Source of the DNA: an uncultured archaeon | GTDB lineage: Archaea > Micrarchaeota > Micrarchaeia > Micrarchaeales > CABMGC01 | Assembly: GCA_963787445.1 (NCBI GenBank) | Contig: CAWBCT010000005.1 | Location: forward strand, 576,001 to 640,000 | Length of the DNA stretch: 64,000 bases | Direction: 5' to 3' | Shown here: positions 29,913 to 51,127 of the stretch, piece after piece | Layout: each line of letters starts with the position of its first letter | How positions within the stretch are numbered: position 1 is the first letter of the stretch | Translations under genes and position numbers: made by a program | The notes under the pieces: generated by a model | Told to the model about the DNA's origin: nothing | Database searches by the model: none | What the model saw: only the letters and a program-made list of their open reading frames with translations

Positions 29913-31328
29913 ATGGCCGATCAAAAAACAGCCGCTAGCGTAGTTCAATCCGAGGAGTACAAGGAGAGGTACGGATTCAACGTCAACGTCGAGTACGACG
30001 ACTTCGAGAAGGGCCTTTCCGAGAAGGTTGTGCGCAAGATCTCCGAGATAAAGGGCGAACCGGACTGGATGCTCGAGAAGCGCCTGACTGCGCTGAAGAT
30101 ATTCTACAGCAAGCCGATGCCCAAGTGGGGTGCGGACCTTAGCGGCATAAATTTTGATGATATCTGGTACTACAGGAACCCGAAGCACGTGAAGGCGAAC
30201 AAGTGGGAGGACGTTCCTGAGGACATAAAGAAGACCTTTGAGAAACTCGGAGTCCCGGAGGCGGAGAGGAAGTTCTTTGCCGGCGCCGAGTCGCAATTCG
30301 ACTCTTCGGTGGTTTACTCCCACGTAAACAAGGAGCTCGAGAGGCTTGGGATAATATTCGTAGACACCGACACTGCGGTAAAGAAGTATCCTGAACTGGT
30401 GAAGAAATACTTCGGGACAGTGATTCCCTCCACAGACAACAAATTCGCAGCCCTAAACACCGCAACCTGGTCTGGTGGTTCGTTCATTTACATTCCAAAA
30501 GGCGTCAAGGCAACAATGCCGCTTAATGCCTACTTCAGAATCAACGCAAACAACTCCGGCCAGTTCGAAAGAACCTTAATAATCGCGGATGAAGGAGCCG
30601 ACGTTACGTACATCGAAGGTTGCACTTCGCCAGTCTACTCGGCAAACTCGCTTCATTCAGCGATAGTCGAGCTTGTGGCGATGAAAGATGCGCACATACG
30701 ATACGTCACAATACAAAACTGGTCAAAGAACATTTACAATCTTGTTACGCAACGCGCGCATGTAGGGGAGAACGGGCGCGTTGAATGGATCGACGCCAAC
30801 ATAGGCAGCAAGATCAACATGAAATATCCCTCAATATACTTGATGGGCAAGGGTGCGAGCGGAGAGGTCCTCTCAGTCGCGGTCGCCGGAGATGGGCAGG
30901 TGCAAGACTCAGGCGGCAAGATATATCACCTAGCCCCCAATACAACCTCAAAGATAATTTCAAAGAGCGTCTCTAAGGGCAGCGGAGTCAGCACCTTTAG
31001 AGGGTTGCTGCACGTGGCAAAGAACGCCGCCAATTCAAAGTCGCACGTCTCGTGCGACGCGCTCCTGCTCGACGGCTTCGCAAAGACCAACACCTATCCT
31101 TACAACCAGATAAACCGCAGCGATGCAATCATCAGCCACGAGGCCAAGATCGGCAAGATAAGCGATGAGATGATCTTCTACATGATGTCGCGCGGCATAC
31201 CTGAGGAAGATGCAGTTGCCATGATTGTGCTCGGCTTCATAGACGACCTCACGAAAGTGCTCCCCATGGAATACTCGCTTGAGCTAAAGCGCCTGATAAA
31301 GCTGGACACGACGGGCGGAGTGGGCTAA
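29913..31328 (+). CDS. sufB: Fe-S cluster assembly protein SufB
   Basis: KGEPDWML, DNKFAALN, WSGGSFIYIPKGV, GQFERTLII, YIEGC, TIQNWS, CDALL, HEAKIGKI. Confidence 0.96.
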   Translation: MADQKTAASVVQSEEYKERYGFNVNVEYDDFEKGLSEKVVRKISEIKGEPDWMLEKRLTALKIFYSKPMPKWGADLSGINFDDIWYYRNPKHVKANKWEDVPEDIKKTFEKLGVPEAERKFFAGAESQFDSSVVYSHVNKELERLGIIFVDTDTAVKKYPELVKKYFGTVIPSTDNKFAALNTATWSGGSFIYIPKGVKATMPLNAYFRINANNSGQFERTLIIADEGADVTYIEGCTSPVYSANSLHSAIVELVAMKDAHIRYVTIQNWSKNIYNLVTQRAHVGENGRVEWIDANIGSKINMKYPSIYLMGKGASGEVLSVAVAGDGQVQDSGGKIYHLAPNTTSKIISKSVSKGSGVSTFRGLLHVAKNAANSKSHVSCDALLLDGFAKTNTYPYNQINRSDAIISHEAKIGKISDEMIFYMMSRGIPEEDAVAMIVLGFIDDLTKVLPMEYSLELKRLIKLDTTGGVG

Positions 31329-31343
31329 ACCGCGGTGAATTGA

Positions 31344-32591
31344 TTGAAGGACTACGGCGAGTTTAAAGAGGATGCGCTACAGCAGTACGCTAGCCTTCCG
31401 GACGAGCTCAACGAGCTTTACACGCGCTATTACCAGCCCATCAAGCTTCCGGAGCCTGATTCACTGAACGCCGCCGCAGCCCCCGCCTCTGCAAAGAAGG
31501 TCGAGGCTCTTGTCGCATCCATAGAGAAGAAGACCCGGATAAACTTTGACCTTGTCTTCTCAGACTCGTTCGTGCGCAACAACACCGATTTCATACAGCT
31601 AAAGAAGGTAAGCGAGCTTGGCGAGCTGCTCGGGCGCAAGATCTACAAGAGCCAGAACAACAAGCTTGCCGCATTCGTAAATGCGTACTCAACCGATGCA
31701 ATACTCGTGAAGCTCAAGAAGGGCGAGAAGAGGAGCGTAAATGTGCTCTTCATAAACGACTCAAACCTGCTGTTCCAGGGCATCTTCGAGGTAGGGGAAG
31801 GCGCAAGCCTCACTATTTCGGAGCTTTTTGCCTCAACCGCCGTTTCCGAGTCGCTTGTTGCGCCGCTTCAGGAGTTCCACCTGGGCCAGGACGCCCACCT
31901 GGAGCTGAACCTGATAGGCGACTGCAATGAGCAGACCACTTTACTTAATCTATCTAAAGGCGTCCTCGGCGAGAACGCCAAGGCCCACGTGAACTTTGTG
32001 TACAACGGAGCAGTGCTCACCAAGGCGATAAGCTTCTTTGACGCCCAAGGCCCCGGCAGCAGCATCGAGGCGTCGGAGATAGCCTACGGCACACGAAACC
32101 AGAGATTTGACATAAACACCTACGTGCTCAATGCAAAGGAGCACACCAACACGCATCTTGAGACCGGAGCGGTTCTGGATGGAAATTCGTACTGTGTGTT
32201 GAAGGGTTACGCAAAGGTGGACAAGTGGACCAAGGGCGCGGTATCCAGAGTCAATGAGCGCGGCATCATAATCAGCGACAAGGCACACATAGACGCGCTT
32301 CCCGACATGTCGATAGACTACAGCGACCAGGTCTCCGCCACGCACAGCGCGGCAACCTCTCCCATAGACCGGGAGGCGCTGTTCTACATGACCTCCCGCG
32401 GGCTTGAGGAGTCGACCGCGAGGAAGATGTTCGTCTCCTCTTTTATCTCAAAGTACCTCTCCTACATACAGAGCCCCTTCGCAAGGGAGCTTGCATCATC
32501 GATCATGCTCAGCAGGCTGGAGAACGACGCGTTCGGCATCATGAAAGACGTTACGCCGAAAGGCATATGGCTGGCCACATCTACAGAGTGA
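31344..32591 (+). CDS. sufD: Fe-S cluster assembly protein SufD
   Basis: Beta-helix SufBD fold; ALPDMSI, SATHSAAT, LFYMTSRG; TTG start. Confidence 0.85.
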   Translation: MKDYGEFKEDALQQYASLPDELNELYTRYYQPIKLPEPDSLNAAAAPASAKKVEALVASIEKKTRINFDLVFSDSFVRNNTDFIQLKKVSELGELLGRKIYKSQNNKLAAFVNAYSTDAILVKLKKGEKRSVNVLFINDSNLLFQGIFEVGEGASLTISELFASTAVSESLVAPLQEFHLGQDAHLELNLIGDCNEQTTLLNLSKGVLGENAKAHVNFVYNGAVLTKAISFFDAQGPGSSIEASEIAYGTRNQRFDINTYVLNAKEHTNTHLETGAVLDGNSYCVLKGYAKVDKWTKGAVSRVNERGIIISDKAHIDALPDMSIDYSDQVSATHSAATSPIDREALFYMTSRGLEESTARKMFVSSFISKYLSYIQSPFARELASSIMLSRLENDAFGIMKDVTPKGIWLATSTE

Positions 32592-32595
32592 TAAT

Positions 32596-33321
32596 ATGAA
32601 ACTTGAAATAAAGAACCTGCACGTATCCATTGATGACAAGGAAGTGGTAAAGGGAGTGGACCTCACGATAAACGAGGGAGAGCTGCACGTCATTATGGGC
32701 CCCAACGGCTCTGGAAAGACAACGCTGGCGAAGACGATAATGGGTCATCCGCAGCTGATGATTACCAAAGGCGACATCCTTGTGGATGGAAAGAGCATAA
32801 AGGAGATGAAGCCCAACGAGCGCGCAAGGCTCGGGATCTTCCTGCAGTTCCAGAACCCGATAGAGATAGAAGGACTTGGCCTTCTCAACTTCCTAAACTC
32901 CGCAAGAGGGGCAATCACCGACAAGCCGCTTCAGTTTAAGGAGTTCATGAGCGAGGTGAAGAACACCTCGAAGGATCTGGCACTCAAGGAAGAGCTGATC
33001 GGCAGGTCGCTCAACCACGGCTTCTCCGGAGGGGAGAAGAAGAAGGTCGAGATACTGCAGATGCACGTGCTGAAGCCGAAGCTTGCCATACTGGACGAGC
33101 CCGACTCGGGCCTTGACATAGACGCCCTCAGGATAGTGGCCCAGAACGTGGAAGCGATGAGAAGGGAGAAGAAGATGAGCCTGCTCGTGATAACGCACTA
33201 CAGCCGCATACTCAATTACATGGAGCCCCAGTTCATCCACGTGATGAAGGACGGGAAGATAGTCAAGGAGGGCGGGAAGGAGCTCATCAATGAGGTTGAG
33301 AGCAAGGGGTATAACATATAG
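32596..33321 (+). CDS. sufC: Fe-S cluster assembly ATPase SufC
   Basis: IMGPNGSGKTTL, FSGGEKKK, LDEPDSGLDIDAL, ITHY. Confidence 0.96.
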   Translation: MKLEIKNLHVSIDDKEVVKGVDLTINEGELHVIMGPNGSGKTTLAKTIMGHPQLMITKGDILVDGKSIKEMKPNERARLGIFLQFQNPIEIEGLGLLNFLNSARGAITDKPLQFKEFMSEVKNTSKDLALKEELIGRSLNHGFSGGEKKKVEILQMHVLKPKLAILDEPDSGLDIDALRIVAQNVEAMRREKKMSLLVITHYSRILNYMEPQFIHVMKDGKIVKEGGKELINEVESKGYNI

Positions 33322-33347
33322 CTCACCCTAATCCCTATGGTGCAAAA

Positions 33348-33527
33348 ATGGAAAACAAGGAGTTCAAGAGAATCTGGGAAAAAGAGGGCAAGAGACTTTT
33401 TGCATTAGAACAGAAGAAAGGAACCATAAAATGCGCCCCAGATACACAAAAGAAAATAGCCAAGGAGGAGCCGAGGCATTCATTTCCTACTAAGCGTAAA
33501 AACACCGCCTTCAGCGGAATGTTTTAG
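33348..33527 (+). CDS. 59-aa basic hypothetical protein inside the suf operon (not in ORF track)
   Basis: MENKEFKRIWEKEGKRLFALEQKKGTIKCAPD...GMF fills the sufC-sufS gap; GGTG SD-like motif upstream. Confidence 0.5.
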   Translation: MENKEFKRIWEKEGKRLFALEQKKGTIKCAPDTQKKIAKEEPRHSFPTKRKNTAFSGMF

Positions 33528-33535
33528 TGAAAGAT

Positions 33536-34786
33536 ATGGCGTTTGATGTCGATAAAATAAGAAAAGATTTCCCCATTTTGTCTACCAAGACGAATGGCGG
33601 CAAGCCCCTGATTTATCTCGACAGCGCAGCCACATCACAGAAGCCAATCCAGGTAATAAAAACCGTTTGCGACTACTACAAGACCTACAACGCGAACATA
33701 CACCGCGGGCTCTACGATCTTTCTCTTAGGTCCACCGAAGCCTACGAGGACTCGAAGAAGGCGGTGGCCAAGTTCATCAACGCCGAGTCCTACCGCGACA
33801 TACTGTACGGCAGGAACACGACCGAGGCGATAAACATTGTTGCACTCTCGTGGGGGGAGGCGAACCTAAAGAAAAATGACCATATCCTAATTACCCAGAT
33901 GGAGCACCACAGCAACATCGTGCCCTGGCAACTGCTCGCGAAGAAGAAGGGTGCGGTTCTTGACTACGTTGAGGTAAAGAACGGAGCTCTTGACATGGAA
34001 AGTTTCAAGAAGCAGCTAGAGAAGAAGCCCGAGCTTGTCGCATTCACCCACGTGTCCAACGTGCTGGGCACGATAAACGATGTAAAGGAGCTCACAAGAA
34101 TTGCACACAGACATGGAGCGACCGTTCTAATCGATGGGGCGCAGTCGGTCCCCCACATGCCCGTGGACGTAAGGTCGCTGGACTGCGACTTCTTCGCATT
34201 CTCGAGCCACAAGATGCTCGGACCGGCGGGAGTGGGCGTGCTGTATGGCAAGGACGAGCTGCTGGAAGCGATGGAACCTGTCTACGGAGGCGGGGACATG
34301 ATCCGTAGCGTAGGCTTCCAGGAAAGCACCTGGAACGAGCTGCCCTGGAAGTTCGAGTCGGGCACGCCGAATATAGAAGGAGCCATAGGACTGGGTGCAG
34401 CAGTAGACTACCTCGACAAAACTAGCATCCGCAGCATAAGAAGCCACGAAATCAAGCTCACCAGGTATGCATTGAACAGGCTTGAGGAGACCAGGGGTGT
34501 AACCGTCTACGGGATAGGTTCCAAAGCGATGACCGACTCGAACAGGGGCGGTGCGATATCATTCAACATAAAGGGAGCACACCCGCACGATGTCTCCTCC
34601 ATTTTCAACAGCCAGGGCATAGCCATAAGGGCCGGCCACCACTGCGCAATGCCTCTCGTGAACCTGGTGCTGAAGGAACCCGCAGTAGCAAGGATGAGTT
34701 TCTACCTGTACAATGAGGAAGAGGAGGTGGATAGGGCGGTAGAGGCCGTTGAAACGGTAAGAAAAGTACTAAGGATAAAGAGTTAG
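33536..34786 (+). CDS. sufS: Cysteine desulfurase SufS
   Basis: YLDSAATSQKP, MEHHSNIVPW, DGAQ, SSHKMLGP, RAGHHCA. Confidence 0.96.
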   Translation: MAFDVDKIRKDFPILSTKTNGGKPLIYLDSAATSQKPIQVIKTVCDYYKTYNANIHRGLYDLSLRSTEAYEDSKKAVAKFINAESYRDILYGRNTTEAINIVALSWGEANLKKNDHILITQMEHHSNIVPWQLLAKKKGAVLDYVEVKNGALDMESFKKQLEKKPELVAFTHVSNVLGTINDVKELTRIAHRHGATVLIDGAQSVPHMPVDVRSLDCDFFAFSSHKMLGPAGVGVLYGKDELLEAMEPVYGGGDMIRSVGFQESTWNELPWKFESGTPNIEGAIGLGAAVDYLDKTSIRSIRSHEIKLTRYALNRLEETRGVTVYGIGSKAMTDSNRGGAISFNIKGAHPHDVSSIFNSQGIAIRAGHHCAMPLVNLVLKEPAVARMSFYLYNEEEEVDRAVEAVETVRKVLRIKS

Positions 34787-34789
34787 TTC

Positions 34790-35467
34790 CTAACCCTTAT
34801 AGAATCTTGACAAAACAGCGTCAGCTAGAATGTCCAAAGTGTCTATCTTGTTGATTTTGCTGTTCTCCAGCATTAAGGATATTTCAGTGCAACCCAGCAC
34901 TACAAGCTCTGCGCCCTCACCGATCTTTCTATTGGCTATCTCATCTACTCGGCGTATCTGCTCCTCTCTCGCAATGCCGGAATTAAATTTGAATATCGAG
35001 TCCGAGAGGGTCTCTTGCTCGTGCTTCGAGAGCTCCAGATATTTTATCCCGCTCACCTTGAAGAGTCCGCTGTTTATGGTTGAAGGAGTTGCAAGTACGG
35101 TTATGGTTCCTACCTTCTTCTCGTTTATGAAAGCCCCAAACTCTTTCTTGAGGTCTACGATCGGGACGTTCACCGATTTCTGCAGTATGTCGTAATAGGA
35201 ATGTATCGTGTTGCAGACCATCGCGATAAAGTCAACCCTATTCCCTTCGAGCTCCTTGAGCCCCTCTATGTAGGGCTGGAGCTCCTTCTTTGAGATGTTG
35301 TGGTAAACCAGCTCGGGAGCGGGGATGCTGTTTATTATGAACTGCGGGAAATCCGCGTTTGACTTCACTCTTCCGCTGTCCTGCAGTTTTTTGATAAGGC
35401 GCAGGTAAAACGTGCCCGTGGCCTCCGGTCCAATCCCTCCAAGCAAGCCAATTTTACGTTGCATCAT
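34790..35467 (-). CDS. Aspartate/glutamate-type (two-Cys) amino-acid racemase
   Basis: IGLLGGIGPEAT, VCNTIH and LGCTEI catalytic Cys motifs. Confidence 0.88.
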   Translation of the reverse strand: MMQRKIGLLGGIGPEATGTFYLRLIKKLQDSGRVKSNADFPQFIINSIPAPELVYHNISKKELQPYIEGLKELEGNRVDFIAMVCNTIHSYYDILQKSVNVPIVDLKKEFGAFINEKKVGTITVLATPSTINSGLFKVSGIKYLELSKHEQETLSDSIFKFNSGIAREEQIRRVDEIANRKIGEGAELVVLGCTEISLMLENSKINKIDTLDILADAVLSRFYKG

Positions 35468-35807
35468 ATCACTCTGCTAAGAAACTCAATCTCCTTTTGA
35501 AAGTTTAGGAATAGGTTTCCGTCCATTTGGCAACAGCGCAAGCTACGCAAGAGCCTAAGGGCTCTCAGCTGCCAACCGCATTCCACTGGAACGGCATCGC
35601 CATCAATTCCTATTAATAAAATCAAATATATAAAACATTTGGTTAGACGAATCGGCCGCACCCTCGTCACCGGTTTCCCTTTTATTCTGCCCTGCGAGCA
35701 CAGAGAACTGGAAAAGCTTAAATATCTCTGAATATATCCTATTTAAGGGGAATGTAAAAGTGCCTGAGGTAGTCCGCCGGTGAGTGGGCAGCTCAGAGGT
35801 AGTTCTC

Positions 35808-37271
35808 ATGAACAAAATTCCGACAAAACCTGGCAAATACGCTGCGAATGGAAGGAGATGGGTAGGGGTAGCCTCATTTGAGGATAGGAAGAAGCCTGCA
35901 GAGGCCTCGATACCCAAGGTGGTTGTGACCCCGAACGGCAATGCGATACTTTTTGAACGCCTTGCGAACGCCGTTAGGACAGGACCTGTCGGAAACGAGG
36001 CAGTGCTTTACGATAACGTAGGGGACCCTGTCCCTGAACAGCTATATTCTACTTTAGGAAACTATTCTGGCAAGCCACTGATAGTCACCAACCATAGGTT
36101 CGACAGCCTGAGGAATTATTCAGGAATGGCAGAGTACCTTGCGCATCCAGAGACCTTTGGAATAGCATCGGGCAGGAAGCCCAGCGGCCCGTGCCACTTC
36201 GGCCACAGGCTGGTGATAGACACCACAAGCTTCTTCCAGAGGAACAAGGTCCAGGTCTTTGTCCCGATAGCGGACAGCGAGGCCAGCCTTGACCGGAAGA
36301 TCAAGAACAAGGCACAATACGAATACTTCATAGCAGACAACCTCCTGGACTGGGGTGCATCGGGTCTCGACCTTGATGCCGCGCACATCTATCTCCAATC
36401 GGAGGAGATGCGCGTGATGAACATAGGCTACGCGATGGCGCGTGGACTGGACCTGCCAGTAACTGTGGACGTTTATGGCAGGGACACTCTTGCTGACGAG
36501 ATGAACTACCTTTTCGCAAGCATCGCCCAGGTGGGAGACATACTGCTTCCGCAGCACCCGGACTTCGGGAAGAAGCACTCCTTCATGCTCTCCGGCGCCG
36601 ATCAGGACGGGAACATGAAGATGACCATGGAACTAGCGTCCAGAGCCATGAGCGGCAAGGTGAGCGAATATGTCAGCACCGCGCCTTCTTCGTTATACAT
36701 AACCTCCATCTCGAATCTTGAGGGTAAGAAGGAGAGCGCAAGCGAGCCCGACACAACGCTCTACCTGGGGCCTTCAAGGAGCCTATACCAGAAGACCGAG
36801 CAGGGCAAGATACTTGAAAGGATAGATAACCTGACGCTCTCTGATAGAATGCTCGACACTGATGAAAAGATTGACGGGTTTACCAAGAAAGACAAGGAAA
36901 AGGTGCTTGACGCCATCCGCAGGAGGCAGACGGTGTTTTCCGAATTTGCAGTAGATGATCTCAGCATAGATGGATTTAAGAGCATCATGAAAGAGGTACT
37001 CACTGCCCATCAAGAGAGGAGGAAAGAGGTCTATGAGTACGCGCTGTCAAGAGCTTTCCGGGACGCCGTTTCGAAACAAGACGCCAGAACAGCAGAAGCA
37101 GTGGTGGCCAATGGCATGCAAGTTCTGCCGGGTTTCAATGCAAGCAGAGTAAAAAGCAGCCCCTCTTTCTGGGAGACCCCAAATGAGGCATACATCCCTG
37201 AAGATAAGCGCAATGTCAGGACCCGATGGTTCAACATGGTCGCACGGATGGCAGGCCAGATAATGCCTTGA
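35808..37271 (+). CDS. Divergent TrpRS paralog A (N- and C-terminal extensions)
   Basis: SGRKPSGPCHFGH (HIGH), PIADSEA, YLQS, AQVGDILLPQH, GADQD; the KMSKS equivalent is KKESAS. Confidence 0.75.
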   Translation: MNKIPTKPGKYAANGRRWVGVASFEDRKKPAEASIPKVVVTPNGNAILFERLANAVRTGPVGNEAVLYDNVGDPVPEQLYSTLGNYSGKPLIVTNHRFDSLRNYSGMAEYLAHPETFGIASGRKPSGPCHFGHRLVIDTTSFFQRNKVQVFVPIADSEASLDRKIKNKAQYEYFIADNLLDWGASGLDLDAAHIYLQSEEMRVMNIGYAMARGLDLPVTVDVYGRDTLADEMNYLFASIAQVGDILLPQHPDFGKKHSFMLSGADQDGNMKMTMELASRAMSGKVSEYVSTAPSSLYITSISNLEGKKESASEPDTTLYLGPSRSLYQKTEQGKILERIDNLTLSDRMLDTDEKIDGFTKKDKEKVLDAIRRRQTVFSEFAVDDLSIDGFKSIMKEVLTAHQERRKEVYEYALSRAFRDAVSKQDARTAEAVVANGMQVLPGFNASRVKSSPSFWETPNEAYIPEDKRNVRTRWFNMVARMAGQIMP

Positions 37272-37283
37272 TGAGGTTTATTC

Positions 37284-38354
37284 ATGGAGTTCAAAACCAA
37301 GACTAACGGCGGCAGGGAAAACAGCGTTAGGCTGACCGATGTATTGAATCAGAATCGCCTGGTGCACACGAGCCCCGGATCGGAGGGCCTTTCTCTAAGG
37401 ATTGAGAAGTGCCAGGCTGAGAAGAGGCCGTTTAGGATGCTATATGGCGAAACCTTCGACGGAAAGGGCAACCCTCTTGACAGCCTGAAGTATTACCTCT
37501 TCGTTAGTGCGCTTTCCAAGGCGATCAAGAGCAGCTATCAGGTTGATGTTGAGTCGACGATTCTGGTCGCAGACCTGGGCGTGTACAGAAACTATCCCGA
37601 GGAGGTCCAGGAGTACAAAAAGTACGCTGCAAGCCGGGAAGCCTTCGCCAGAAAGGTAAAGGAGGTGTACAAGTGCTCCTACGATGTCCGACTGATGAGC
37701 GAGATCTCAGACACGCCGGAGTTCAGACAGAGGTTCGGCAGGGTCAGCGAGATAAGCAACCTCGACGCGGAGCTCATGGGCATGATCCGCAAGAGCGTGC
37801 CAGAGGACAGGCTCGAAGCGGAGGCAAAGCGCGGTTACAAGTATCCATTCGAAGAGATCGCCACAATACTGGGCCTGGACGTGAAGGTCGGGCCGCCGAG
37901 AGAGCAGCTCTATGATGACATAGCGAACTCCATGCTCCCCCACTTCAACGTCAGCCCTCTGCTCCCGATCTATCTCACCCCCACTTATCCGGTCGGCACT
38001 AACTTTGCAGCCTACACGAGCTCTCCTGCAACCAAGCAGTACGGCCTTACGCCCTATAAGGTTGGCAGCAGCGGGATGACCGCCCACAGGATCGTCCTAG
38101 GGGTAACCAGCGTGCAGGAGGCAAAGCGGCTCATAGACGAGACACAGATCTCCTCGTCGGCCACGAAGCCGAACCCGGTTTGCGACATCCTTGTCCTGGC
38201 AGACCTCGCAAGACAGCACCTCGAAGGGGAGTTTGTTCAGAAGGATGTTGCAGACACTCTTGAGCTGTACTATAGAAACAGGATCCGCTCGCACCAGATC
38301 AAAGAGACCGCTTTCACGCATCTGCGCGACCATGTATTAAATTATTTCGGCTGA
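37284..38354 (+). CDS. Class-Ic aaRS-fold (TyrRS/CDPS-like) protein lacking HIGH and KMSKS
   Basis: RPFRMLYG, TILVADL, YPFEEIA and LDVKVGPPREQLYD align with TyrRS/CDPS core strands; ATP-binding motifs are absent. Confidence 0.55.
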   Translation: MEFKTKTNGGRENSVRLTDVLNQNRLVHTSPGSEGLSLRIEKCQAEKRPFRMLYGETFDGKGNPLDSLKYYLFVSALSKAIKSSYQVDVESTILVADLGVYRNYPEEVQEYKKYAASREAFARKVKEVYKCSYDVRLMSEISDTPEFRQRFGRVSEISNLDAELMGMIRKSVPEDRLEAEAKRGYKYPFEEIATILGLDVKVGPPREQLYDDIANSMLPHFNVSPLLPIYLTPTYPVGTNFAAYTSSPATKQYGLTPYKVGSSGMTAHRIVLGVTSVQEAKRLIDETQISSSATKPNPVCDILVLADLARQHLEGEFVQKDVADTLELYYRNRIRSHQIKETAFTHLRDHVLNYFG

Positions 38355-38358
38355 TCCG

Positions 38359-39480
38359 ATGGATGACCAGGAAGGAGCAAATCAAGGGGAACGAGTCGAC
38401 CCATGGGGCAGCGAAGCGTTCACGAACCCGGACCAGGATTTTGCAGATTTCAAGATAGCCAAAATACCCTCCCATGCTCTTGAGTTCTTCAAGGGAAAGA
38501 CCTTCCTGTTCGACCGCGGGTTGATAATCAGGCACAAGGATTTCGAGACCATACTACGGAGGATAGAACTTGGCGAGGATTTCCTGGTGATAAGCGGCTT
38601 TTCAAGCTCCGGGGAGCTCCACTATGGTCATAAGTCAGTCATAGACATTTACAACTTCTTCCGCAAGTTCACAAAGGAGGGGCGATTTGCAATCTGCGAT
38701 CTCGACGCCTATGTCAGCAGGTCGGACGAAAAGATTCCGGACCTTGCCACTGCCAGGAAGTACGCCGTAGACAATGTGGCAGATGCGCTCGCCCTAGGAG
38801 TTCCCGAAGCGGACATACGGGTGCAGAGTAACCAGAGCCTTGACTACCACAACTTCGTGCTTCAAATCTCAAAGAGCCTCTCCTTCAACACCATGAAGGC
38901 GGTGCTCGGACACTCTGACCTGGGCAAATTCACCGCAACATATCTCCAGATAGCTGATATACTGTACCCACAGCTGGAACTGCACGGAGCCCACTCCCTG
39001 GTGCCCGTAGGCATAGACCAAGAACCGATACTAAGCCTGGCCCGGGACGTGGCCAAGAAGCTGAGGAAGAGCCACGGCTTCATCTCACCATCATCCTTGT
39101 ACACCGCACACCTGCCCTCCCTAGTCAATATGAAGGACAAGATGTCAAAGAGCGAGAAAGGCTCGGCACTGCTTCTAAACTCGACAGTGGCGGAGATCGA
39201 CCAGACGATAGCCCACGCGACCACCGGCGGGAGGGACACCCTACAGCAGCAGATCGAGCTAGGAGGCACCCCGGGCAACTGCCCCCTGTATTATCTTCAC
39301 AGGTCAAACAACCCGGATACCGCAGCTGTAGCTGATATCTACAGCAATTGCAAGTCAGGAAAGCTGATGTGCAAGGATGACAAAGCAGCACTGAAGGAGC
39401 TATTCAGGGCCAACGCCGCAGCCCACATCGAAAGAAGGGAGCGATTCATGGAAACCGCAAAGCGGATAGTTGCACGATAA
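38359..39480 (+). CDS. trpS: Archaeal-type tryptophanyl-tRNA synthetase-like protein B
   Basis: VDPWG, SGFSSSGELHYGH, QIADILYPQL, VPVGIDQEP, KMSKS, ATTGGR, ELGGTP, CKSGKLMC. Confidence 0.85.
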   Translation: MDDQEGANQGERVDPWGSEAFTNPDQDFADFKIAKIPSHALEFFKGKTFLFDRGLIIRHKDFETILRRIELGEDFLVISGFSSSGELHYGHKSVIDIYNFFRKFTKEGRFAICDLDAYVSRSDEKIPDLATARKYAVDNVADALALGVPEADIRVQSNQSLDYHNFVLQISKSLSFNTMKAVLGHSDLGKFTATYLQIADILYPQLELHGAHSLVPVGIDQEPILSLARDVAKKLRKSHGFISPSSLYTAHLPSLVNMKDKMSKSEKGSALLLNSTVAEIDQTIAHATTGGRDTLQQQIELGGTPGNCPLYYLHRSNNPDTAAVADIYSNCKSGKLMCKDDKAALKELFRANAAAHIERRERFMETAKRIVAR

Positions 39481-39499
39481 AATATAGAAACGTGATTCT

Positions 39500-40195
39500 T
39501 TGGAGCTGAAAAACCTGCGCGAGAAACTGGACGTGACAAACCAGCGGATAATAACCAAGCTCAAGGACAGGTCACGGTTTCCCCTAAACCCGCCTGTTTA
39601 CATCGCGGACGCAATACCAATAAAAGGCAGGCCCGGAATCTCACTTCTGGAGTTTGCGCTGGAGGGGATAGAGGTCTACCACTCATCTTTGGGCAGGTAT
39701 GATTATCACGACCAGTATCCTGTTTTCTCAAGAAAGCTGCCGGGAAGCCTGGTCGAAAGAGTGACCCCCCCGACTTCACTCCAGGAGGTGTCAATAACCA
39801 TATCGACAGACCTGCTTTCCTACTACCAGCAGATGCTGCCCAGGCTATGCGATAAGAAAGAAGCTGACCCCACCACCTACGGCGAGACCGCCTACGTGGA
39901 TGCCGACACCCTGCAGCTCATACACGAGAGGATAAACAGCACCGGCCGCTATGTGGCTCAGGTCAAGCTTGAGCGGAACGGGAGCCTCAACGTCGACCAC
40001 TCTGATGAAAAGAAGATCAGGGACCTTCTGAGGGATGCGAAGAGGGAGGGTGAAGTGATAGAAGAGGCCAAAAAACTGGCAGCAATGCAGGGACTTGAGC
40101 CTAACCTGATCGGAGAAGTGATCGGCTGGGTCATAGACAAAACCCTCGAGGTGGAGGTCAAGTACATACAGAGGCTTGACGCCCCCAAAGCATAA
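39500..40195 (+). CDS. Chorismate mutase, eukaryote (ARO7/AroQ-beta) type
   Basis: Collinear with yeast ARO7 motifs: NLREKL, RSRF..NPPVY, SLLEFAL, GRYDY, YGETAYVD...LIHERI..GRYVAQVK, VIDKTLEVEVKYIQRL. Confidence 0.85.
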   Translation: MELKNLREKLDVTNQRIITKLKDRSRFPLNPPVYIADAIPIKGRPGISLLEFALEGIEVYHSSLGRYDYHDQYPVFSRKLPGSLVERVTPPTSLQEVSITISTDLLSYYQQMLPRLCDKKEADPTTYGETAYVDADTLQLIHERINSTGRYVAQVKLERNGSLNVDHSDEKKIRDLLRDAKREGEVIEEAKKLAAMQGLEPNLIGEVIGWVIDKTLEVEVKYIQRLDAPKA

Positions 40196-40231
40196 ATATC
40201 ATAGAAAAGCACTAACAATAAACGTGATTCA

Positions 40232-40594
40232 ATGTTCGGACCTGAATTTACCGCAACGCACCATCGAGAGTGGGGTTCGCACTTCAAGGAGAAGGAGCCG
40301 CTCCGCACCAAACTGGCGCTAGTCGGCACCATAACGGCAGGGAACCTGGATTTTGCCGCGATAGTGGCAAGACGGCTCTCTCCGAAAGACAGGAAAGCCT
40401 CGGCATTAGAAGGCGTAGCGCGCCTGGCCTTCCTCAAGGCTGACACAACTCTCATCAGGGGCGCAGCAAGAACATTCGGGCTAACCGACGAAGAGACAAA
40501 GGGTGCAGTGGGCGACGCGGTCAAGGAACAGAGACGCCTTGGCGACACCGTGGTTCCTCAAAGGCTTGAAGCGGAATTCGGCCTAAAAACGTAA
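40232..40594 (+). CDS. Hypothetical helical protein
   Basis: 120-aa ORF with GTGA SD-like motif, co-directional with the operon. Confidence 0.6.
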   Translation: MFGPEFTATHHREWGSHFKEKEPLRTKLALVGTITAGNLDFAAIVARRLSPKDRKASALEGVARLAFLKADTTLIRGAARTFGLTDEETKGAVGDAVKEQRRLGDTVVPQRLEAEFGLKT

Positions 40595-40609
40595 TTATTA
40601 GTTATAGTT

Positions 40610-40921
40610 TCATCCTTCAAACTTCTTCTCATCCTTCCTAGCTCGCTCGTGCGCCTCCTTTAGGCTATGACCCTCGTTCTGGTACCTTATCTCCTGGAGC
40701 TCGTGGTAGGCTATCTTCATGGCGTGCCTCTTCCACCTATCAGATATCCAGATCTGGCCCAGCGGGATTCCGAGCTTGGCGGCGGCTTTGGGGGCGTAGC
40801 GCCTACCTTTGTAAACCACGTTGTAGCAGGCTATGTGCTCTCCGATCAGGCTGTGGGGCACGAAGACCACTTTGTAGCCAAGGCGCCTGAGCCCGCTTGC
40901 TATGGAGGATTTGGTGGGCAT
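40610..40921 (-). CDS. Small zincin-like protein (HExxE...AH)
   Basis: IWISD...IAYHELQE...SLKEAHERA. Confidence 0.6.
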   Translation of the reverse strand: MPTKSSIASGLRRLGYKVVFVPHSLIGEHIACYNVVYKGRRYAPKAAAKLGIPLGQIWISDRWKRHAMKIAYHELQEIRYQNEGHSLKEAHERARKDEKKFEG

Positions 40922-41031
40922 GGAATATAAATATCGTAAATCGGGTTCTAAAAGAATTATGTAACCACAAACTAAACCTATTTTTATCACAATGTTATTA
41001 AATTCTTACGTTCTAGTTTAAACTTGAGTAA

Positions 41032-42003
41032 ATGAAAGAATATCCACTAGATAAATTCCCTAATATAAATATGCGACCGGAAGTGGTTATTAAGCATAAA
41101 GAACATCTTGATGCACTCAAAGACGATATAATTGAGTATAGCAAAGTTGGCCATAGAGATACAATTATGTTTGATTGGCTACTCAGAGTTTTTGAGAATT
41201 TGGGTCTCTCAACAGTGAGAAAGGAATACTTAGATTCATTAGCTATAACAAAGACGCGGTTAGCTTTGTTTGTGGTATTGATTGATGATCCAGTCGACAA
41301 TATCAAAAAGCGTAACTTTAAACTTTTCGAAGAACTTCTCAAGATCCCATTTAATCCCGAGCAAATAGATAAATCTCAATTTAATGTTCATGATGTTGAA
41401 TATCTTGAATTTACAAAAAACTTGTGGACTGAGATCACAAACGAGATTACAAAATATCCTGATCATAAGAGATATAAAGAAGCCTTTGAATTTGATATCA
41501 AACAACTTCTTAATTCTATGAGCTATAGCCGATTTGTAAATACCTACCCTAATGCTATTAACTTGACTGAGAATGACGCTTACGTACATCATAGTATGAT
41601 AGTTTTAATAGAAATGGACATTGATCTGATGTGCTCGCAAGGATTTGATGAGCGTGAATTTGGAGCATTAAGAGAATTAGGTTACATCTCTCAAAAGATG
41701 GCGAAGATAGGTAATATTATAGGAACATATCCTCGAGAACTTATTGAATCAGATATGTCCAGTAGAGCAGTGGTAAAATTTCTGACAGATAACGGCGCAG
41801 ATTTTGGATTCAAATTAAATAAACTAATTAAAAAAGAAATGAGGTATCCCGAGTTCGAAAAAAACCTAACAGACGAATGGCAAAAGGAGTACTTACTAAC
41901 TATCGATTTATCAAAAAGAATAAAATCAATTAATACACAAGATTTCATAAAACAACTAGAATTCGTACAAAAAGCATACCAAATTAAAACTGACTATTGG
42001 TAA
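41032..42003 (+). CDS. Class I terpene-synthase/isoprenoid-synthase fold protein
   Basis: LIDDPVD (DDxxD) and KIGNIIGTYPRE (NSE/DTE-like) motifs; all-helical; AT-rich. Confidence 0.65.
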   Translation: MKEYPLDKFPNINMRPEVVIKHKEHLDALKDDIIEYSKVGHRDTIMFDWLLRVFENLGLSTVRKEYLDSLAITKTRLALFVVLIDDPVDNIKKRNFKLFEELLKIPFNPEQIDKSQFNVHDVEYLEFTKNLWTEITNEITKYPDHKRYKEAFEFDIKQLLNSMSYSRFVNTYPNAINLTENDAYVHHSMIVLIEMDIDLMCSQGFDEREFGALRELGYISQKMAKIGNIIGTYPRELIESDMSSRAVVKFLTDNGADFGFKLNKLIKKEMRYPEFEKNLTDEWQKEYLLTIDLSKRIKSINTQDFIKQLEFVQKAYQIKTDYW

Positions 42004-42022
42004 AATTTGTGCTGCTTAAATC

Positions 42023-42568
42023 TCATAATTGTTCTTCATAAAGAGACGGAAATCGTTCTTTCAGGTTTTTATTGCCATCAATAACTATCTTACAGACATT
42101 ATTACTATTAGCTTGGTATTCTACTTCTATAGCATCAAAATCTCTATCCGTAATGGCAGATATTAAACCCGCAATAATACCGCGTAACAAGTGATCTATA
42201 TTTCTATATTTTGTATTTTCAAATTCTTTTATTAAGAAAGAATCTTCTAAGATTAATGTCCCAGTGGGGATTGTATTAGCATCTTCGTACTTTACATTCC
42301 CATAACCATATAAGTTTATAGTATTACAAATCCAGTTTTTATCTGTTGACTGTGCAAACTCTGCTTTAAGATTTTGTTTGTATTCCAACATAGATTTTTT
42401 TGAAATTAAATAAAGTGTCTTTAATGACCCCAAATCATCATACGCTTTACTTAAATATGCAGTTATACTTTGTGGCGGAAATATCAGAACATCTTGTCCA
42501 TAAAGTGTTACTTTTCCATCTACAAATGTCATTTTTCTTGTTATCATCAACATCTCAAAAAAGTTCAT
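42023..42568 (-). CDS. V4R-domain protein (degenerate Zn motif)
   Basis: GKVTLYGQDVLIFP, LYGYG, HLLRGIIAGLIS, EVEYQANSNNVC. Confidence 0.75.
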   Translation of the reverse strand: MNFFEMLMITRKMTFVDGKVTLYGQDVLIFPPQSITAYLSKAYDDLGSLKTLYLISKKSMLEYKQNLKAEFAQSTDKNWICNTINLYGYGNVKYEDANTIPTGTLILEDSFLIKEFENTKYRNIDHLLRGIIAGLISAITDRDFDAIEVEYQANSNNVCKIVIDGNKNLKERFPSLYEEQL

Positions 42569-43134
42569 TCGATGTCACCAAACCTTTTTGCTGCTAATTC
42601 AGGAAAATTTTCAAATAATTCTTTTTTAGAACCCCAATAGTAAACGCATACGTCATTACCCGAACATATACACTTTGTTTCTATAACATCTATATCCATA
42701 TTGAATGTACCACTTGCAGATCCTGCAATAAGACCTTCAAAGATAAAATCAGAAGGTTCTTTTATCCCTTTATTTTTAAGATAATCATGCATCGGAAGAT
42801 CTTTTATATTCATAAATCCGCGTTTACCATTTTCATCTAAAAGTTGATATTTTACTAACCCCCAACCTCCGAAAGCACAATACTTAACCCATCTATCCAA
42901 AAAATCTTTAGGGGTTAGCATGTATTCCTTACCTAGTGGTCTAGAAAATTCTGCCATACCCTTTTTCATACACCCATACAATTCTCTTGCCTTTCTTGGC
43001 GTATTATTGATATCTATAGACAACATACCCACAAAATTTACTGGCAAAATCACTATCCGTTGTTTATCCATAGTTATTTTGCCAGGTTCTATATTAACTT
43101 CTTTAGCAAGCGAAAATTTTTCGAATATGTTCAT
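42565..43134 (-). CDS. V4R-domain protein
   Basis: GKITMDKQRIVILP, FGGWG, FEGLIAG, ETKCICSGNDVCVY. Confidence 0.85.
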   Translation of the reverse strand: MNIFEKFSLAKEVNIEPGKITMDKQRIVILPVNFVGMLSIDINNTPRKARELYGCMKKGMAEFSRPLGKEYMLTPKDFLDRWVKYCAFGGWGLVKYQLLDENGKRGFMNIKDLPMHDYLKNKGIKEPSDFIFEGLIAGSASGTFNMDIDVIETKCICSGNDVCVYYWGSKKELFENFPELAAKRFGDIE

Positions 43135-43210
43135 TAAATCGCCTTAACATCGTAATACGATATTACTTTATTAGAGCTAATAGTAGTTTTATTGGCTCTT
43201 GTTTACCATA

Positions 43211-43945
43211 TTATTTATAAACTTGTTCGGCAGGCTTTACAGACATACCTATCTTACCAAACTCCAAGTCATGTACATATTGGCTATGGTCTGTATTTCT
43301 CATTTTCAAGATTGATAAAGTTCTGCTTCTCCTTGCACCTATAAGTTGATTGTACATAACAACAAGACCGTCACACATGAACTCGCTAACACCATCTACT
43401 GTGAGGTGCTCCCCCCCATCTACTGAATCTGTTATTATCATATTTGTTGTAGTAAGATCACTTAATTTATTTATTACCAAATAAGTTATACGCTTTTCAG
43501 AATCACCAGTATAAACTGTTTTATTTCTAGACCCGAGATAACTAATTGGTATGGTGAATTGGTCTATATTTACTGAAAAAATCTCCAGACTATCAAAAAC
43601 TAATCTTTTTGCATGAGTAGTATTTACTGCATCCTCTATGATTTTAAAAAGATCAAGTTTAACTACATCCATTGGGATCGACAAAAACGTAATCTTACCT
43701 TGGCTTTCAAGACTATTCAAATCCCATCCAAATCTTTTTCCTTGTTCTTTCAGCATATCTGTATTAGATTCAAGAGATACATATAATCCATTTTCTCCAG
43801 CTAAAGCCCCACTGTAAAGATATTGCAACCCAAAAATGGTTTTACCAGTACCTGGTGCTCCAACCAGCAAGACATTGAAATTTTTTGGTACGCCCCCCTC
43901 TACAAGCTCATCGAAACCGGGAATGCCTGTCTTTACTCTTTCCAC
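43211..43945 (-). CDS. KaiC/RAD55-like ATPase (single domain)
   Basis: RVKTGIPGFDELVEGG, GAPGTGKT, RLVFDS, EFMCDG, LKMR. Confidence 0.92.
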   Translation of the reverse strand: MERVKTGIPGFDELVEGGVPKNFNVLLVGAPGTGKTIFGLQYLYSGALAGENGLYVSLESNTDMLKEQGKRFGWDLNSLESQGKITFLSIPMDVVKLDLFKIIEDAVNTTHAKRLVFDSLEIFSVNIDQFTIPISYLGSRNKTVYTGDSEKRITYLVINKLSDLTTTNMIITDSVDGGEHLTVDGVSEFMCDGLVVMYNQLIGARRSRTLSILKMRNTDHSQYVHDLEFGKIGMSVKPAEQVYK

Positions 43946-44076
43946 GTCAAAACCTCTAGCTAGTATCGGTATGGTATAGCAAACTATTTATGCATAACGC
44001 AGAAAACATAGTCACTTGCTGAAAGCAAAATTGTTATTGAATTATAAACCTTTATTATGATGTATTAATTGAGTTT

Positions 44077-45180
44077 ATGACAACTACAAAATACTCAACA
44101 CTATTTGAAGACCAAGCTTTTGGTATTCCAGGTTACATTTCTAAACAATTCCATGCTCTAGATAACAAAAAGTTCTTTATTAGAAATATATTCATACCAG
44201 AATCCTTTTTTGTAATACTTGAGCAGACCATAGTAGAAAACAAAGGAGACAAAAGAAAAAAGGAATTATACAGGATGGGAAAGCAATTTGGTTACCGATT
44301 TGCACTTCTTAATCGGTTTCCCAAAGGTAATATTAACAAAGTCACAATGCGTTCCGTGTTTGATTTCTTCCAAACAATCTACGCAAAGAAGATGACTACA
44401 TTAAATATAGATTCCCAATTGAAGATGGTTGAACTAGAACTTGATGAATTCATAGTAACTTCCAAAGATGATATGGGTTATATGCCTATTGGAGCCGGCG
44501 CAGGTGCATGGTGTTACTTAAATGGTGATTATAATCTTGATTGTAGCACCCAAAAATTATCGAAGGGTAAGCATGTACTTTTATGTGCTAATAAAAAGAT
44601 TCTTAAAGAACGGGGATTTGAAGTAATCGAATCTAAGCAAATGCCAGAAAGTATTGATTTTAAGAGCTATATGGGCCATAACTTGCCACAAAAAGGTATG
44701 TTCAAATCATCAAGTTTTAGCCAGCTGCTTAAAACTGGAATTGCTTCGTATACACCTGGAATAATAAAATTAGAAAAATCAAATGAAAGGTTAATAGTAC
44801 TTGAGATATCCATACTCTTTGATATAGAAAACACCTTTGATCAGAAGTTAATATCAGACTCTTCATATACGCCATTCTACAACATTGGACTTTCTCTAAA
44901 GGAAAAAGAAAAACCATACGATAGTCTCACCGAACTGCTTAGCGCCTTTGGATTTGGTATTGTACAGGTAACCGAAAAGAAAGATACGGTATCAGTCCTC
45001 TTTCATGGATATCCGTGGTTCTCAACAGAAACCGAGAAAACAAGTTTTGGTCTTATTAAAGGGGCTGTTCTTGGCTTCCTTAATGGTATTACTGAAAGAA
45101 AATATGAACTAAAATCTTTATCCTCAGAAGTTACGAATAACGTATTTGATGTATCCATGGAATTGGAAATCAAGGAGTAA
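44077..45180 (+). CDS. Tandem V4R-like domain protein
   Basis: Two V4R-like halves (RNIFIP...LYRMGKQFG; ERLIVLE...AFGFG...GAVLGFLNG). Confidence 0.6.
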   Translation: MTTTKYSTLFEDQAFGIPGYISKQFHALDNKKFFIRNIFIPESFFVILEQTIVENKGDKRKKELYRMGKQFGYRFALLNRFPKGNINKVTMRSVFDFFQTIYAKKMTTLNIDSQLKMVELELDEFIVTSKDDMGYMPIGAGAGAWCYLNGDYNLDCSTQKLSKGKHVLLCANKKILKERGFEVIESKQMPESIDFKSYMGHNLPQKGMFKSSSFSQLLKTGIASYTPGIIKLEKSNERLIVLEISILFDIENTFDQKLISDSSYTPFYNIGLSLKEKEKPYDSLTELLSAFGFGIVQVTEKKDTVSVLFHGYPWFSTETEKTSFGLIKGAVLGFLNGITERKYELKSLSSEVTNNVFDVSMELEIKE

Positions 45181-46498: not shown

Positions 46499-46586
46499 AT
46501 AGGTTATAATAAATCATATAATATATAGTGTTTTCTACAGAATTCGAAAAAGTACGAAGATTTATTATTTTGAATCTGAAACAGAG

Positions 46587-46616
46587 TTTTATATAGGTTA
46601 TATAACCTATATAAAA
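46587..46616. promoter_or_regulatory. Perfect 30-bp palindrome (operator candidate)
   Basis: TTTTATATAGGTTATATAACCTATATAAAA is its own reverse complement; extra half-site ATATAGGTTATA at 46497-46508. Confidence 0.7.
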
Positions 46617-46734
46617 ATTATGTAAATGTAACTTCTGATTCATTTAATTCATTAATCTTTAAAGCAATACTCAATTTACATAGTCCGTTAATTTATACCA
46701 CCTCAATACTTGTTAAAGCAGTGAGGATGTAAAC

Positions 46735-47460
46735 ATGATAGAAATAAAAATTGGAAAAGGAACTTCGCAAGATGCAGAACGCTTAGTTGGTAGAGAAGCA
46801 TTTCCAATAAGAGAACGCTCAAGCAACGGCGCTAATGGAAGTCACAGTACCCTGCTAGTTCTGGAAAGGAGAACTGGGGCTCTCGCTGATTCTGCTCGAC
46901 CTTTGGCAGTCCTTCAAAGATCCGACGTACATAAGCTCACAGATACGCAGATGGAAAGGCTCGACAAGCTTTGGTCCTACAACATCTCCCACATCACGCG
47001 TAAACTCGTGTCAAGAGGAGATGCCCCGCAGATCAAGGCAGAACAACTTTATCCACTTGAGGCGATGTTGGGCAAGATAGATCTCGAGACCGCCAGGAGT
47101 TTTGAAGCAGAGTTCAAAAGATTCATGTCCATAATTCTGATCAAACCCGAAAACGTGAAAATTGTAGCACCTTCGAGGCCTGTAGACATGTATTGGCACT
47201 TGTTCGTACTAGACACGCGGGAATATCGTAAGTTCTGTGAGCAGGTGTTCGGAAGGTTCATAGATCATGTGCCGTCCAGTGACGCTAGAAGGCAGCATAC
47301 AAGGGACGCATACGTGAGCACGCTGGATGCATACAATAAACTTTTCGGAGTTCCTGACGGAAGAATATGGCCCAAGCTCAGGGTTGAGGGCGCTAATTGC
47401 GGGACGGGTTCTGGACATTGCAGCGGTGGCCCCGATTGTAATCAATGTAATGCAGGATGA
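46735..47460 (+). CDS. Glycine-rich-domain (GRDP/DUF1399-like) protein with Cys/Gly tail
   Basis: EFKRFM, APSRPVDMYWHLFVLDTREYRKFC, FIDHVP, TLDAYNKLFG, IWP. Confidence 0.75.
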   Translation: MIEIKIGKGTSQDAERLVGREAFPIRERSSNGANGSHSTLLVLERRTGALADSARPLAVLQRSDVHKLTDTQMERLDKLWSYNISHITRKLVSRGDAPQIKAEQLYPLEAMLGKIDLETARSFEAEFKRFMSIILIKPENVKIVAPSRPVDMYWHLFVLDTREYRKFCEQVFGRFIDHVPSSDARRQHTRDAYVSTLDAYNKLFGVPDGRIWPKLRVEGANCGTGSGHCSGGPDCNQCNAG

Positions 47461-47479
47461 TAGCGGTTAATAAGAGCAT

Positions 47480-51045: not shown

Positions 51046-51127
51046 AATCACACCGGTCAAATCCTTAAGACTCTTATCTATGATAAGAACCATTCGGACT
51101 TTATCTTTTAATATGCTTCTGTATGGG

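Follow-up and report, generated by a model that had tools for sequence, protein, structure and literature searches.

What would a protein with the predicted architecture of a tyrosyl-tRNA synthetase (TyrRS), lacking both of its ATP signature motifs, contribute when its gene stands between two paralogues of tryptophanyl-tRNA synthetase (TrpRS)? The question is raised by a locus of an uncultured Micrarchaeote, contained in a stretch of 64,000 nucleotides (assembly GCA_963787445.1, contig CAWBCT010000005.1, positions 576,001 to 640,000), which is referred to here as the window. The gene concerned, at 37284..38354 on the forward strand, starts with ATG and encodes 356 residues. It is a Micrarchaeota member of the ORF1 family, an open reading frame (ORF) family published in 2017 (Mukai, Reynolds, Crnkovic and Soll, 2017, Life 7:8; PMC5370408). 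The accessible part of that paper describes a TrpRS-A clade, with a bacterial type A1 and an archaeal type A2, together with a TrpRS-A-like group, and states that ORF1, of unknown function, always accompanies the TrpRS-A paralogues in candidate phyla radiation (CPR) bacteria and in DPANN archaea, the functions of these proteins being said to 'remain unclear'. A literature search, in which subscription journals were not covered, yielded this paper as the sole description of ORF1 and TrpRS-A and found no later functional work on them; PMC12636597 makes no mention of ORF1 in its accessible part, and PMC9437257, in the portion available, cites the 2017 paper only for coexisting orthogonal pairs. 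We propose, with a probability of roughly 0.55, that ORF1, itself ATP-dead but endowed with a pocket, is an obligate partner of TrpRS-A and serves a dedicated tRNATrp(A73). The present analysis finds a full TyrRS fold, the presence of TrpRS-A directly downstream in 52 of 58 loci, gene fusions, a pocket common to two ORF1 subfamilies and a strong depletion of tryptophan.

From the sequence, the TyrRS fold was only guessable, because no Pfam or NCBIfam family matched ORF1 above its cut-off, BLASTP against both flanking TrpRS-like proteins was insignificant, and a family-profile search of the PDB reached Methanocaldococcus jannaschii TyrRS at E 0.16-0.6 and the cyclodipeptide synthase (CDPS) AlbC at E 1.6. 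The RecA-concatemer matches that topped this profile search were discarded as artefacts, and phmmer of ORF1 against PDB sequences returned chance Ral-A matches only. The AlphaFold2 model, computed from a 68-sequence alignment of the family, has a mean pLDDT (predicted local distance difference test) of 94.6 and a pTM (predicted template modelling score) of 0.92. When it was submitted to Foldseek, nearly all of the matches listed were archaeal or eukaryal TyrRSs (best E 6e-11; template modelling score, TM, up to 0.69/0.76), with one TrpRS at rank 9. An exhaustive VIA search aligned the TyrRS of Aeropyrum pernix (2cya_A) at Z 26.1 with a root-mean-square deviation (rmsd) of 2.9 over 295 residues, covering model residues 11-356; other TyrRSs were found at Z 23-24 and TrpRSs at Z 21-23, both at full length, and residues 236-356 of ORF1 aligned with the C-terminal part of TyrRS. 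ORF1 is thus predicted to be a complete TyrRS-fold molecule, with a Rossmann domain, a CP1 domain, a KMSKS-loop region and a C-terminal helical domain. The first-pass annotation had read the gene as encoding a protein of class-Ic TyrRS fold without ATP motifs, and the model, together with the Foldseek and VIA matches, confirms that description.

The whole-chain likeness to archaeal and eukaryal TyrRSs of class Ic (A. pernix 2cya, M. jannaschii 1j1u; 295/328 residues aligned) is accompanied by a sequence identity of only 12-18%, and ORF1 falls below the PF00579 threshold; a single one of the 68 family members matches PF00579, at E 0.024. ORF1 consequently presents the domain architecture of a class Ic synthetase, without HIGH, without KMSKS and without a score above the Pfam and NCBIfam thresholds. 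This model differs from the earlier view of the family: in the accessible text of PMC5370408, SWISS-MODEL recovered no more than helices and motifs resembling HIGH and KMSKS, and the Rossmann-fold domain was stated to be missing, whereas the present model is a complete TyrRS fold that includes this domain and resembles specifically the archaeal type of TyrRS. In other respects the protein is a typical ORF1 as described there, since BLAST reveals no similarity to known proteins and since it is poor in tryptophan and coexists with a canonical TrpRS.

The ATP motifs are where ORF1 departs most clearly from its structural relatives. The strings MLYG (52-55), TILVADL (92-98), YPFEEIA (187-193) and LDVKVG (198-203), all quoted in the first-pass annotation, are present in the translation, as is GETFDGKGNPLD (55-66); HxGH and KMSKS are absent from it, and HxGH is found in none of 68 homologues. 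The region at the HIGH position reads YGETFDGKGNPLDSLKYY, with E56, D59 and D66 invariant. At the KMSKS position the family has K259 (68/68), then alanine or valine, glycine and S262 (67/68), the second lysine thus being replaced by serine in 67 of the 68 members. The histidines of HIGH and the second lysine of KMSKS are transition-state binders of class I synthetases.

The residue register was obtained with hhalign, which aligned the family profile collinearly with the canonical TyrRS of the same genome (E 0.0081, 252 columns) and with a TrpRS-A profile (E 6.9e-4, 300 columns), and gave no alignment with the genome's canonical TrpRS (E 0.14, 10 columns); these alignments are weak and serve for residue register only. 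The alignment with TyrRS places TILVADLGVYRN opposite QILLADWHTMAN of the genome's own TyrRS, YKVGS (258-262) opposite its KMSKS, and GPPRE opposite GMDQ, so that E207 stands at the equivalent of Q173. Y187, E191 and T194 are found at the equivalents of Y151, Q155 and D158 of the M. jannaschii enzyme, the roles of the TyrRS residues being taken from the accessible part of PMC3105412. ORF1 therefore keeps the counterpart of Y151 and the 'AD...N' strand (D97, N103), and differs from TyrRS in having T194 at D158 and E207 at Q173. Around Y54-T57 the register shifts by one residue between the run with the own TyrRS and that with the TrpRS-A profile.

Conservation in the family is concentrated around this site. 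Among the 68 ORF1 sequences, 26 columns are invariant, namely Y54, G55, E56, T57, D59, G62, D66, Y70, Y71, D97, N103, Y187, K201, G203, P204, P205, R206, E207, Y210, D211, P236, G254, T256, Y258, K259 and R269. Residue 190 is acidic (E or D) in all 68 homologues, whereas at residue 191 Glu occurs in 47 of them and Ala in the other 21. The pocket extends to further copies of the protein: G55, T57, D59, G62, D66, K69, D97, Y187, K201, G203, P204, E207, Y210, D211, G254, Y258, S262 and R269 are kept in every one of 15 additional ORF1 sequences examined, some 12 of them forming the deep paralogue subfamily that adjoins TrpRS-A-like. The C-terminal domain is, conversely, the least conserved part of the protein, and its last two helices are absent in 14/68 members. 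The location of the invariant residues in the active-site region makes it improbable that ORF1 merely serves as a passive scaffold; and since the pocket is conserved while the C-terminal domain varies, this pattern of residues suggests that the pocket probably binds tryptophan, the acceptor end of the tRNA, or Trp-tRNA.

The second line of evidence is the association with TrpRS-A. In the window, ORF1 belongs to a tight same-strand run, in which the TrpRS-A-like gene (35784..37271, forward strand, 495 residues) ends 12 nucleotides upstream and the TrpRS-A2-type gene (38359..39480, forward strand, 373 residues) starts 4 nucleotides downstream, followed by a chorismate-mutase-like gene; both paralogues are named after the scheme in the accessible part of PMC5370408, where ORF1 likewise adjoins them. 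The TrpRS-A2-type protein matches PF00579 in full, has intact HYGH and KMSKS motifs, and scores 250.6 bits with NF008925, under the cut-off of 451. The TrpRS-A-like protein matches PF00579 only over residues 125-337 and has a HIGH-like CHFGH and, opposite KMSKS, KESAS. As side observations on this second paralogue, KESAS stands in place of the KMSAS or KMSKS of TrpRS, and N-terminal and C-terminal regions of about 120 and about 150 residues lie outside the Pfam match.

ORF1 homologues numbered 92 at E<=1e-3 in a word-indexed search, and an exhaustive profile search of 1.84 billion proteins found only 172 representative clusters at the same threshold. A genome collection yielded 58 loci, all in DPANN or CPR-type genomes, on which the locus counts rest. 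The archaeal loci belong to Micrarchaeota, Woesearchaeota, Nanoarchaeota, Aenigmatarchaeota and Nanohaloarchaea, and the bacterial ones to the CPR groups Woesebacteria, Shapirobacteria, Dojkabacteria, Saccharibacteria, Microgenomates and Paceibacterota; some metagenome-assembled genomes titled Gammaproteobacteria also hold ORF1 loci, which resemble those of CPR. In 52 of the 58 loci, tblastn with the window proteins places a homologue of the 373-residue neighbour on the same strand, directly downstream of ORF1, and by our ORF calls the two genes overlap by 4 nucleotides in 21 of these 52. A TrpRS-A-type match occurs elsewhere in the locus in four of the six remaining cases, and in L044 and L033 the contig is too short for a full judgement. 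TrpRS-A is downstream on the opposite strand in L025 and upstream in L059; L011 and L033 have partial matches cut by the end of the locus, and in L044 the contig ends just after ORF1. The suggestion of the first-pass annotation that the protein is functionally tied to its synthetase-like neighbours is borne out.

The two genes are also found as one. Single-ORF ORF1::TrpRS-A fusions are encoded in two Micrarchaeota loci (L003, 731 residues; L004, 698 residues) and in a CPR-type locus (L050, 778 residues, identical with P0124), and protein databases supplied P0242 (731 residues), P0243 (730 residues) and P0114 (612 residues), with PF00579 in the C-terminal half. Such fusions thus occur in both archaea and bacteria. 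Across 43 sequences of TrpRS-A the catalytic signatures H88, G90, H91, K261, M262 and Q221 do not vary, and the pairwise-distance matrices of ORF1 and TrpRS-A are correlated over 43 pairs (Mantel r 0.81; 0 of 2000 permutations as high). Many DPANN loci have a fuller order of TrpRS-A-like, ORF1 paralogue, ORF1 and TrpRS-A2. Two loci hold additional copies: the ORF1/TrpRS-A2 module occurs twice in L022 (198-2368 and 4774-6839), both ORF1 matches having identical tblastn statistics, and L008 (765-8077) has three ORF1-like ORFs; the duplicate modules seen in some DPANN loci could reflect real tandem duplication or an assembly repeat.

The pair is additional to the canonical synthetases of the cell. 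Four PF00579 genes are present in the Micrarchaeote's genome (1.05 Mb, 82% complete): besides the paralogues on either side of ORF1, they are a canonical TyrRS, which carries HIGH and KMSKS, and a canonical TrpRS, which carries KMSAS. ORF1 is therefore not the TyrRS of the cell, which is encoded elsewhere in the genome. In five of five other ORF1-bearing genomes checked, 3-5 PF00579 matches were found in each, and the ORF1/TrpRS-A pair is accordingly an extra there as well. The module is a conserved, horizontally shared accessory system of translation type in two great radiations of ultra-small microbes.

The third line of evidence concerns tRNATrp and tryptophan itself. ARAGORN found 33 tRNA-Trp(CCA) genes in the 58 loci. 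Of these, 26 have G1-C72 and A73 and immediately precede ORF1 on its own strand, while two others, located elsewhere in those same loci, are of the bacterial type, with A1-U72 and G73. The accessible part of PMC5370408 reports a tRNATrp of archaeal identity (A73), in the operon for the bacterial versions and in the genome for the archaeal ones, a coexisting canonical TrpRS and a lack of tryptophan residues. Four tRNA-Trp genes of Woesearchaeota type are located upstream of ORF1 on the opposite strand. In these four (L009, L013, L015, L032), a simple parse of the acceptor stem gives a terminal G after a G1-C72 stem, whereas the 26 bacterial-type copies on the same strand have A73. The ORF1 of the window contains no tryptophan in its 356 residues; the family average is 0.19%, with 37 of 68 members having none, and that of TrpRS-A 0.33%, against 0.81% in the long ORFs of the genome.

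Taken together, we hypothesise that ORF1 would be an ancient class-Ic paralogue which kept the whole archaeal TyrRS architecture while both ATP signature motifs were replaced, and which, because of this replacement, would most likely be unable to make an aminoacyl-adenylate itself. The adenylation step can be assigned to the adjacent TrpRS-A because its signatures are intact; this enzyme would activate tryptophan and charge the dedicated tRNATrp (G1-C72, A73), the gene of which stands just upstream in the bacterial versions. The two proteins would be obligate 1:1 partners, presumably in a physical complex, as suggested by the recurrent independent fusions, the translational coupling and the near-universal co-occurrence. 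ORF1 would lend a pocket of the type that receives an amino acid or a 3' end, and in the long forms also its C-terminal domain, to hold tryptophan, the tRNA or Trp-tRNA, and the system would probably operate under tryptophan scarcity. If such a heterodimeric synthetase exists, nature would thereby offer an orthogonal TrpRS/tRNATrp pair, which could be useful to genetic-code engineering and informative on the way in which symbionts cope with a shortage of tryptophan. More generally, a complete TyrRS fold, a remodelled invariant active site and recurrent fusion turn a 'hypothetical protein' into the question of a hetero-modular class-Ic enzyme made of a Tyr-type and a Trp-type module.

A partnership of this kind was already considered in 2017, when it was suggested that ORF1 might bind TrpRS-A homodimers or heterodimerise, with reference to the double-length TyrRS of some eukaryotes (PMC5370408, accessible part). 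The double-length pseudo-dimeric TyrRS of trypanosomatids, as in Leishmania major (3p0h/3p0j), also combines a motif-bearing and a motif-less class-Ic module, here in two genes or in a fusion, and the single ORF1 model matches 3p0h_A at Z 24.0. It differs in that the ORF1 system joins TyrRS-like and TrpRS-like modules with the motif-less one first, and in that the active-site pocket of ORF1 is highly conserved and not decayed.

Several results weigh against the proposed partnership. For the natural fusion P0240, AlphaFold2 gave two confidently modelled halves (pLDDT 90.6) but a pTM of only 0.59; the VIA list of this model is filled by TrpRS matches to residues ~370-731, with Z up to 40. On the Leishmania pseudo-dimer the fusion model superposes poorly (3p0j/3p0h, Foldseek, ~800 columns, TM 0.31-0.32, rmsd ~30 Å), and the canonical dimer arrangement of class Ic is therefore not reproduced. 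Synteny and a high Mantel correlation are expected of any operon and are no proof of binding. For the separate proteins, a complex prediction from family alignments gave scores of 0.11 and 0.02, the mark being 0.32, which speaks neither for nor against binding. The Micrarchaeote itself has a single ORF1 for two TrpRS-A-type genes; as in Micrarchaeota generally, there is no second ORF1, and the TrpRS-A-like gene is without an ORF1 paralogue of its own, unlike in most other DPANN loci. Nor was the dedicated tRNA detected at this locus: no tRNA-Trp was found near the operon in the window by ARAGORN, nor any tRNA by Rfam at E<=1 over 30000-46000, and ARAGORN with introns allowed detected no tRNA-Trp among the 39 tRNAs of the 82%-complete genome. 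Lowering the ARAGORN threshold for the tRNA-Trp of this genome produced hundreds of spurious calls, which were discarded. In addition, the invariance of the active-site pocket would be superfluous in a purely structural pseudo-subunit and hints that ORF1 has its own chemistry or ligand, and anticodon reading is unlikely as a conserved role because the C-terminal domain is so variable and may lack its last helices.

The alternative that best survives, although we consider it rather doubtful, broadens the idea of the first-pass annotation: ORF1 would be an aminoacyl-tRNA-dependent enzyme, which would take the 3' end of Trp-tRNATrp(A73) from TrpRS-A and transfer or modify the tryptophan, in a manner akin to CDPSs or to tRNA-dependent amino-acid conversion, perhaps with T57 or E190/E191 as catalytic residues. 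It draws on the aminoacyl-binding residues of TyrRS and AlbC, which are kept or made acidic in ORF1, and on the invariance of this pocket in two deep subfamilies. According to the accessible part of PMC3105412, Y178 and E182 of AlbC superimpose on Y151 and Q155 of TyrRS, the positions with which Y187 and E191 of ORF1 align; among the candidate counterparts of the AlbC pocket set (G35, S37, Y178, E182), G55, T57 and Y187 are invariant, and G55-x-T57 mimics G35-x-S37. ORF1 and the CDPSs (AlbC, Rv2275; PF16715) also share a class-Ic descent with loss of the ATP motifs, a pocket helix that bears a tyrosine and an acidic residue, and, two positions past a conserved glycine, a small residue with a hydroxyl group. 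A private tRNA with a canonical anticodon would suit a non-ribosomal use, and there are faint echoes in profile searches, in the AlbC match mentioned above and in one distant family member that matches PF16715 at E 0.004, below the cut-off.

The structural comparison nevertheless argues for TyrRS. CDPSs match the ORF1 model at Z 9.0-12.2 and only over residues ~25-235, the N-terminal two thirds, as opposed to Z 26 at full length for TyrRS; AlbC is described in the accessible part of PMC3105412 as having neither a C-terminal helical domain nor a KMSKS-loop region, both of which ORF1 keeps, and PF16715 matches none of the 68 members at E<=0.1. The putative correspondence of T57 with S37 depends on the register, which differs by one residue between the hhalign runs, and S37 has no TyrRS counterpart (PMC3105412, accessible part). 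The first-pass annotation had seen in ORF1 a possible intermediate between TyrRS and CDPS and had singled out its Tyr, Glu and Thr as residues expected to be conserved. The predicted fold is class-Ic Rossmann and far closer to TyrRS, so that the reading as a CDPS intermediate is weakly supported; Y187 and T57 are indeed invariant (68/68), whereas E191 is replaced by alanine in 21 members, the conserved acid near the YxxxE motif being E/D190. The loci, moreover, contain no conserved tailoring or acceptor-related genes, as the chorismate-mutase-like and racemase genes occur in 6/58 each, and the operons were judged in PMC5370408, as far as accessible, to look like tryptophan metabolism or encoding and not like natural-product synthesis. 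It is improbable that ORF1 is a living 'missing link' between synthetases and tRNA-dependent enzymes of peptide-bond formation or transfer, a full-length TyrRS fold without ATP chemistry that acts on Trp-tRNATrp(A73) from its fused or coupled TrpRS-A. In that case the orthogonal tRNA/synthetase pair would be maintained by CPR and DPANN organisms as a private supply for non-ribosomal, tRNA-dependent transfer or conversion of tryptophan, and an ORF1 that used Trp-tRNA as substrate would shed light on how CDPS-like enzymes arose from synthetases. A different lead, to the DIT1_PvcA family (PF05141), was rejected as unsupported. In the ESM Atlas the nearest clusters are unnamed, and 21 of 30 matches are represented by a cluster 53% of whose members carry PF05141, with a recognition value of 1667 below the mark of 2300; the VIA match to PvcA (3e59_A) reaches Z 9.2, and no family member matches PF05141 at E<=0.1.

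Somewhat less probable still, and in our opinion unlikely, is that ORF1 acts as a ligand-sensing regulatory subunit, whose pocket would bind tryptophan or a related metabolite and tune TrpRS-A or the expression of the operon. A model for such a role is the HisRS-like HisZ, which regulates HisG. Conserved amino-acid-pocket residues in a protein devoid of ATP motifs would fit this role, and so would the tryptophan depletion of the family and the yeast-type chorismate-mutase-like gene of some clusters, a family known for allosteric regulation by tryptophan and tyrosine. The invariant charged residues (E56, D59, D66, D97, K201, R206, E207, D211, K259, R269) are, on the other hand, more than a simple pocket usually needs, and ORF1 has no DNA-binding domain.

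It is very improbable that ORF1 works alone as a synthetase or ligase, activating through ATP with non-canonical motifs and charging the neighbouring tRNA or another acceptor, although the full synthetase architecture is retained and although neither K259, the first lysine of the KMSKS position, nor the GxxxD/KYY block that occupies the HIGH position varies in the family (motifs named 'KMSKS-like' and 'HIGH-like' in the accessible part of PMC5370408). Both histidines of HIGH and the second lysine of KMSKS are missing in 68/68 members, an invariant aspartate (D66) occupies the HIGH region, and wherever the contig permits the check, ORF1 is accompanied by a TrpRS-A-type gene with intact motifs.

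The remaining genes around the operon are facultative or ordinary neighbours. The chorismate-mutase-like gene (39500..40195, forward strand) encodes 231 residues of the yeast/plant type, with 88.4 bits for TIGR01802 (cut-off 170.9) and 28.1 bits for PF01817. Chorismate synthase (PF01264) and prephenate dehydratase (PF00800) were not found in the 82%-complete genome. Because the gene recurs beside the ORF1 cluster in 6 of the 58 loci, its product may bind an aromatic ligand instead of acting in biosynthesis. Upstream, and divergently transcribed, is an Asp/Glu-type amino-acid racemase of 225 residues (34790..35467, reverse strand; TIGR00035 108 bits, cut-off 93.1), a facultative neighbour with the same frequency.

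Directly after the operon, the stretch at 40600-47500 has a GC content of 0.33-0.45, against ~0.52-0.58 elsewhere, and may be an island. It contains orphan ORFs (40610-40990, 41032-42003, 42023-42568, 44077-45180 and 46735-47460), a protein with a weak match to the V4R domain (42565-43134), a KaiC-like ATPase (43211-43945) and a winged-helix protein (45170-46498). An intron-containing tRNA-Arg(CCT) is located at 51785-51917 (G000:C5:627785-627917); ARAGORN missed it in the default scan and reported it only with introns allowed. The other neighbours are ordinary: a SufS-like cysteine desulfurase, judged by its sequence, at 33527-34786, with a homologue at 44% identity in L047, a Ham1-family NTP pyrophosphatase at 48104-48682 and a prolyl-tRNA synthetase at 49600-51093.

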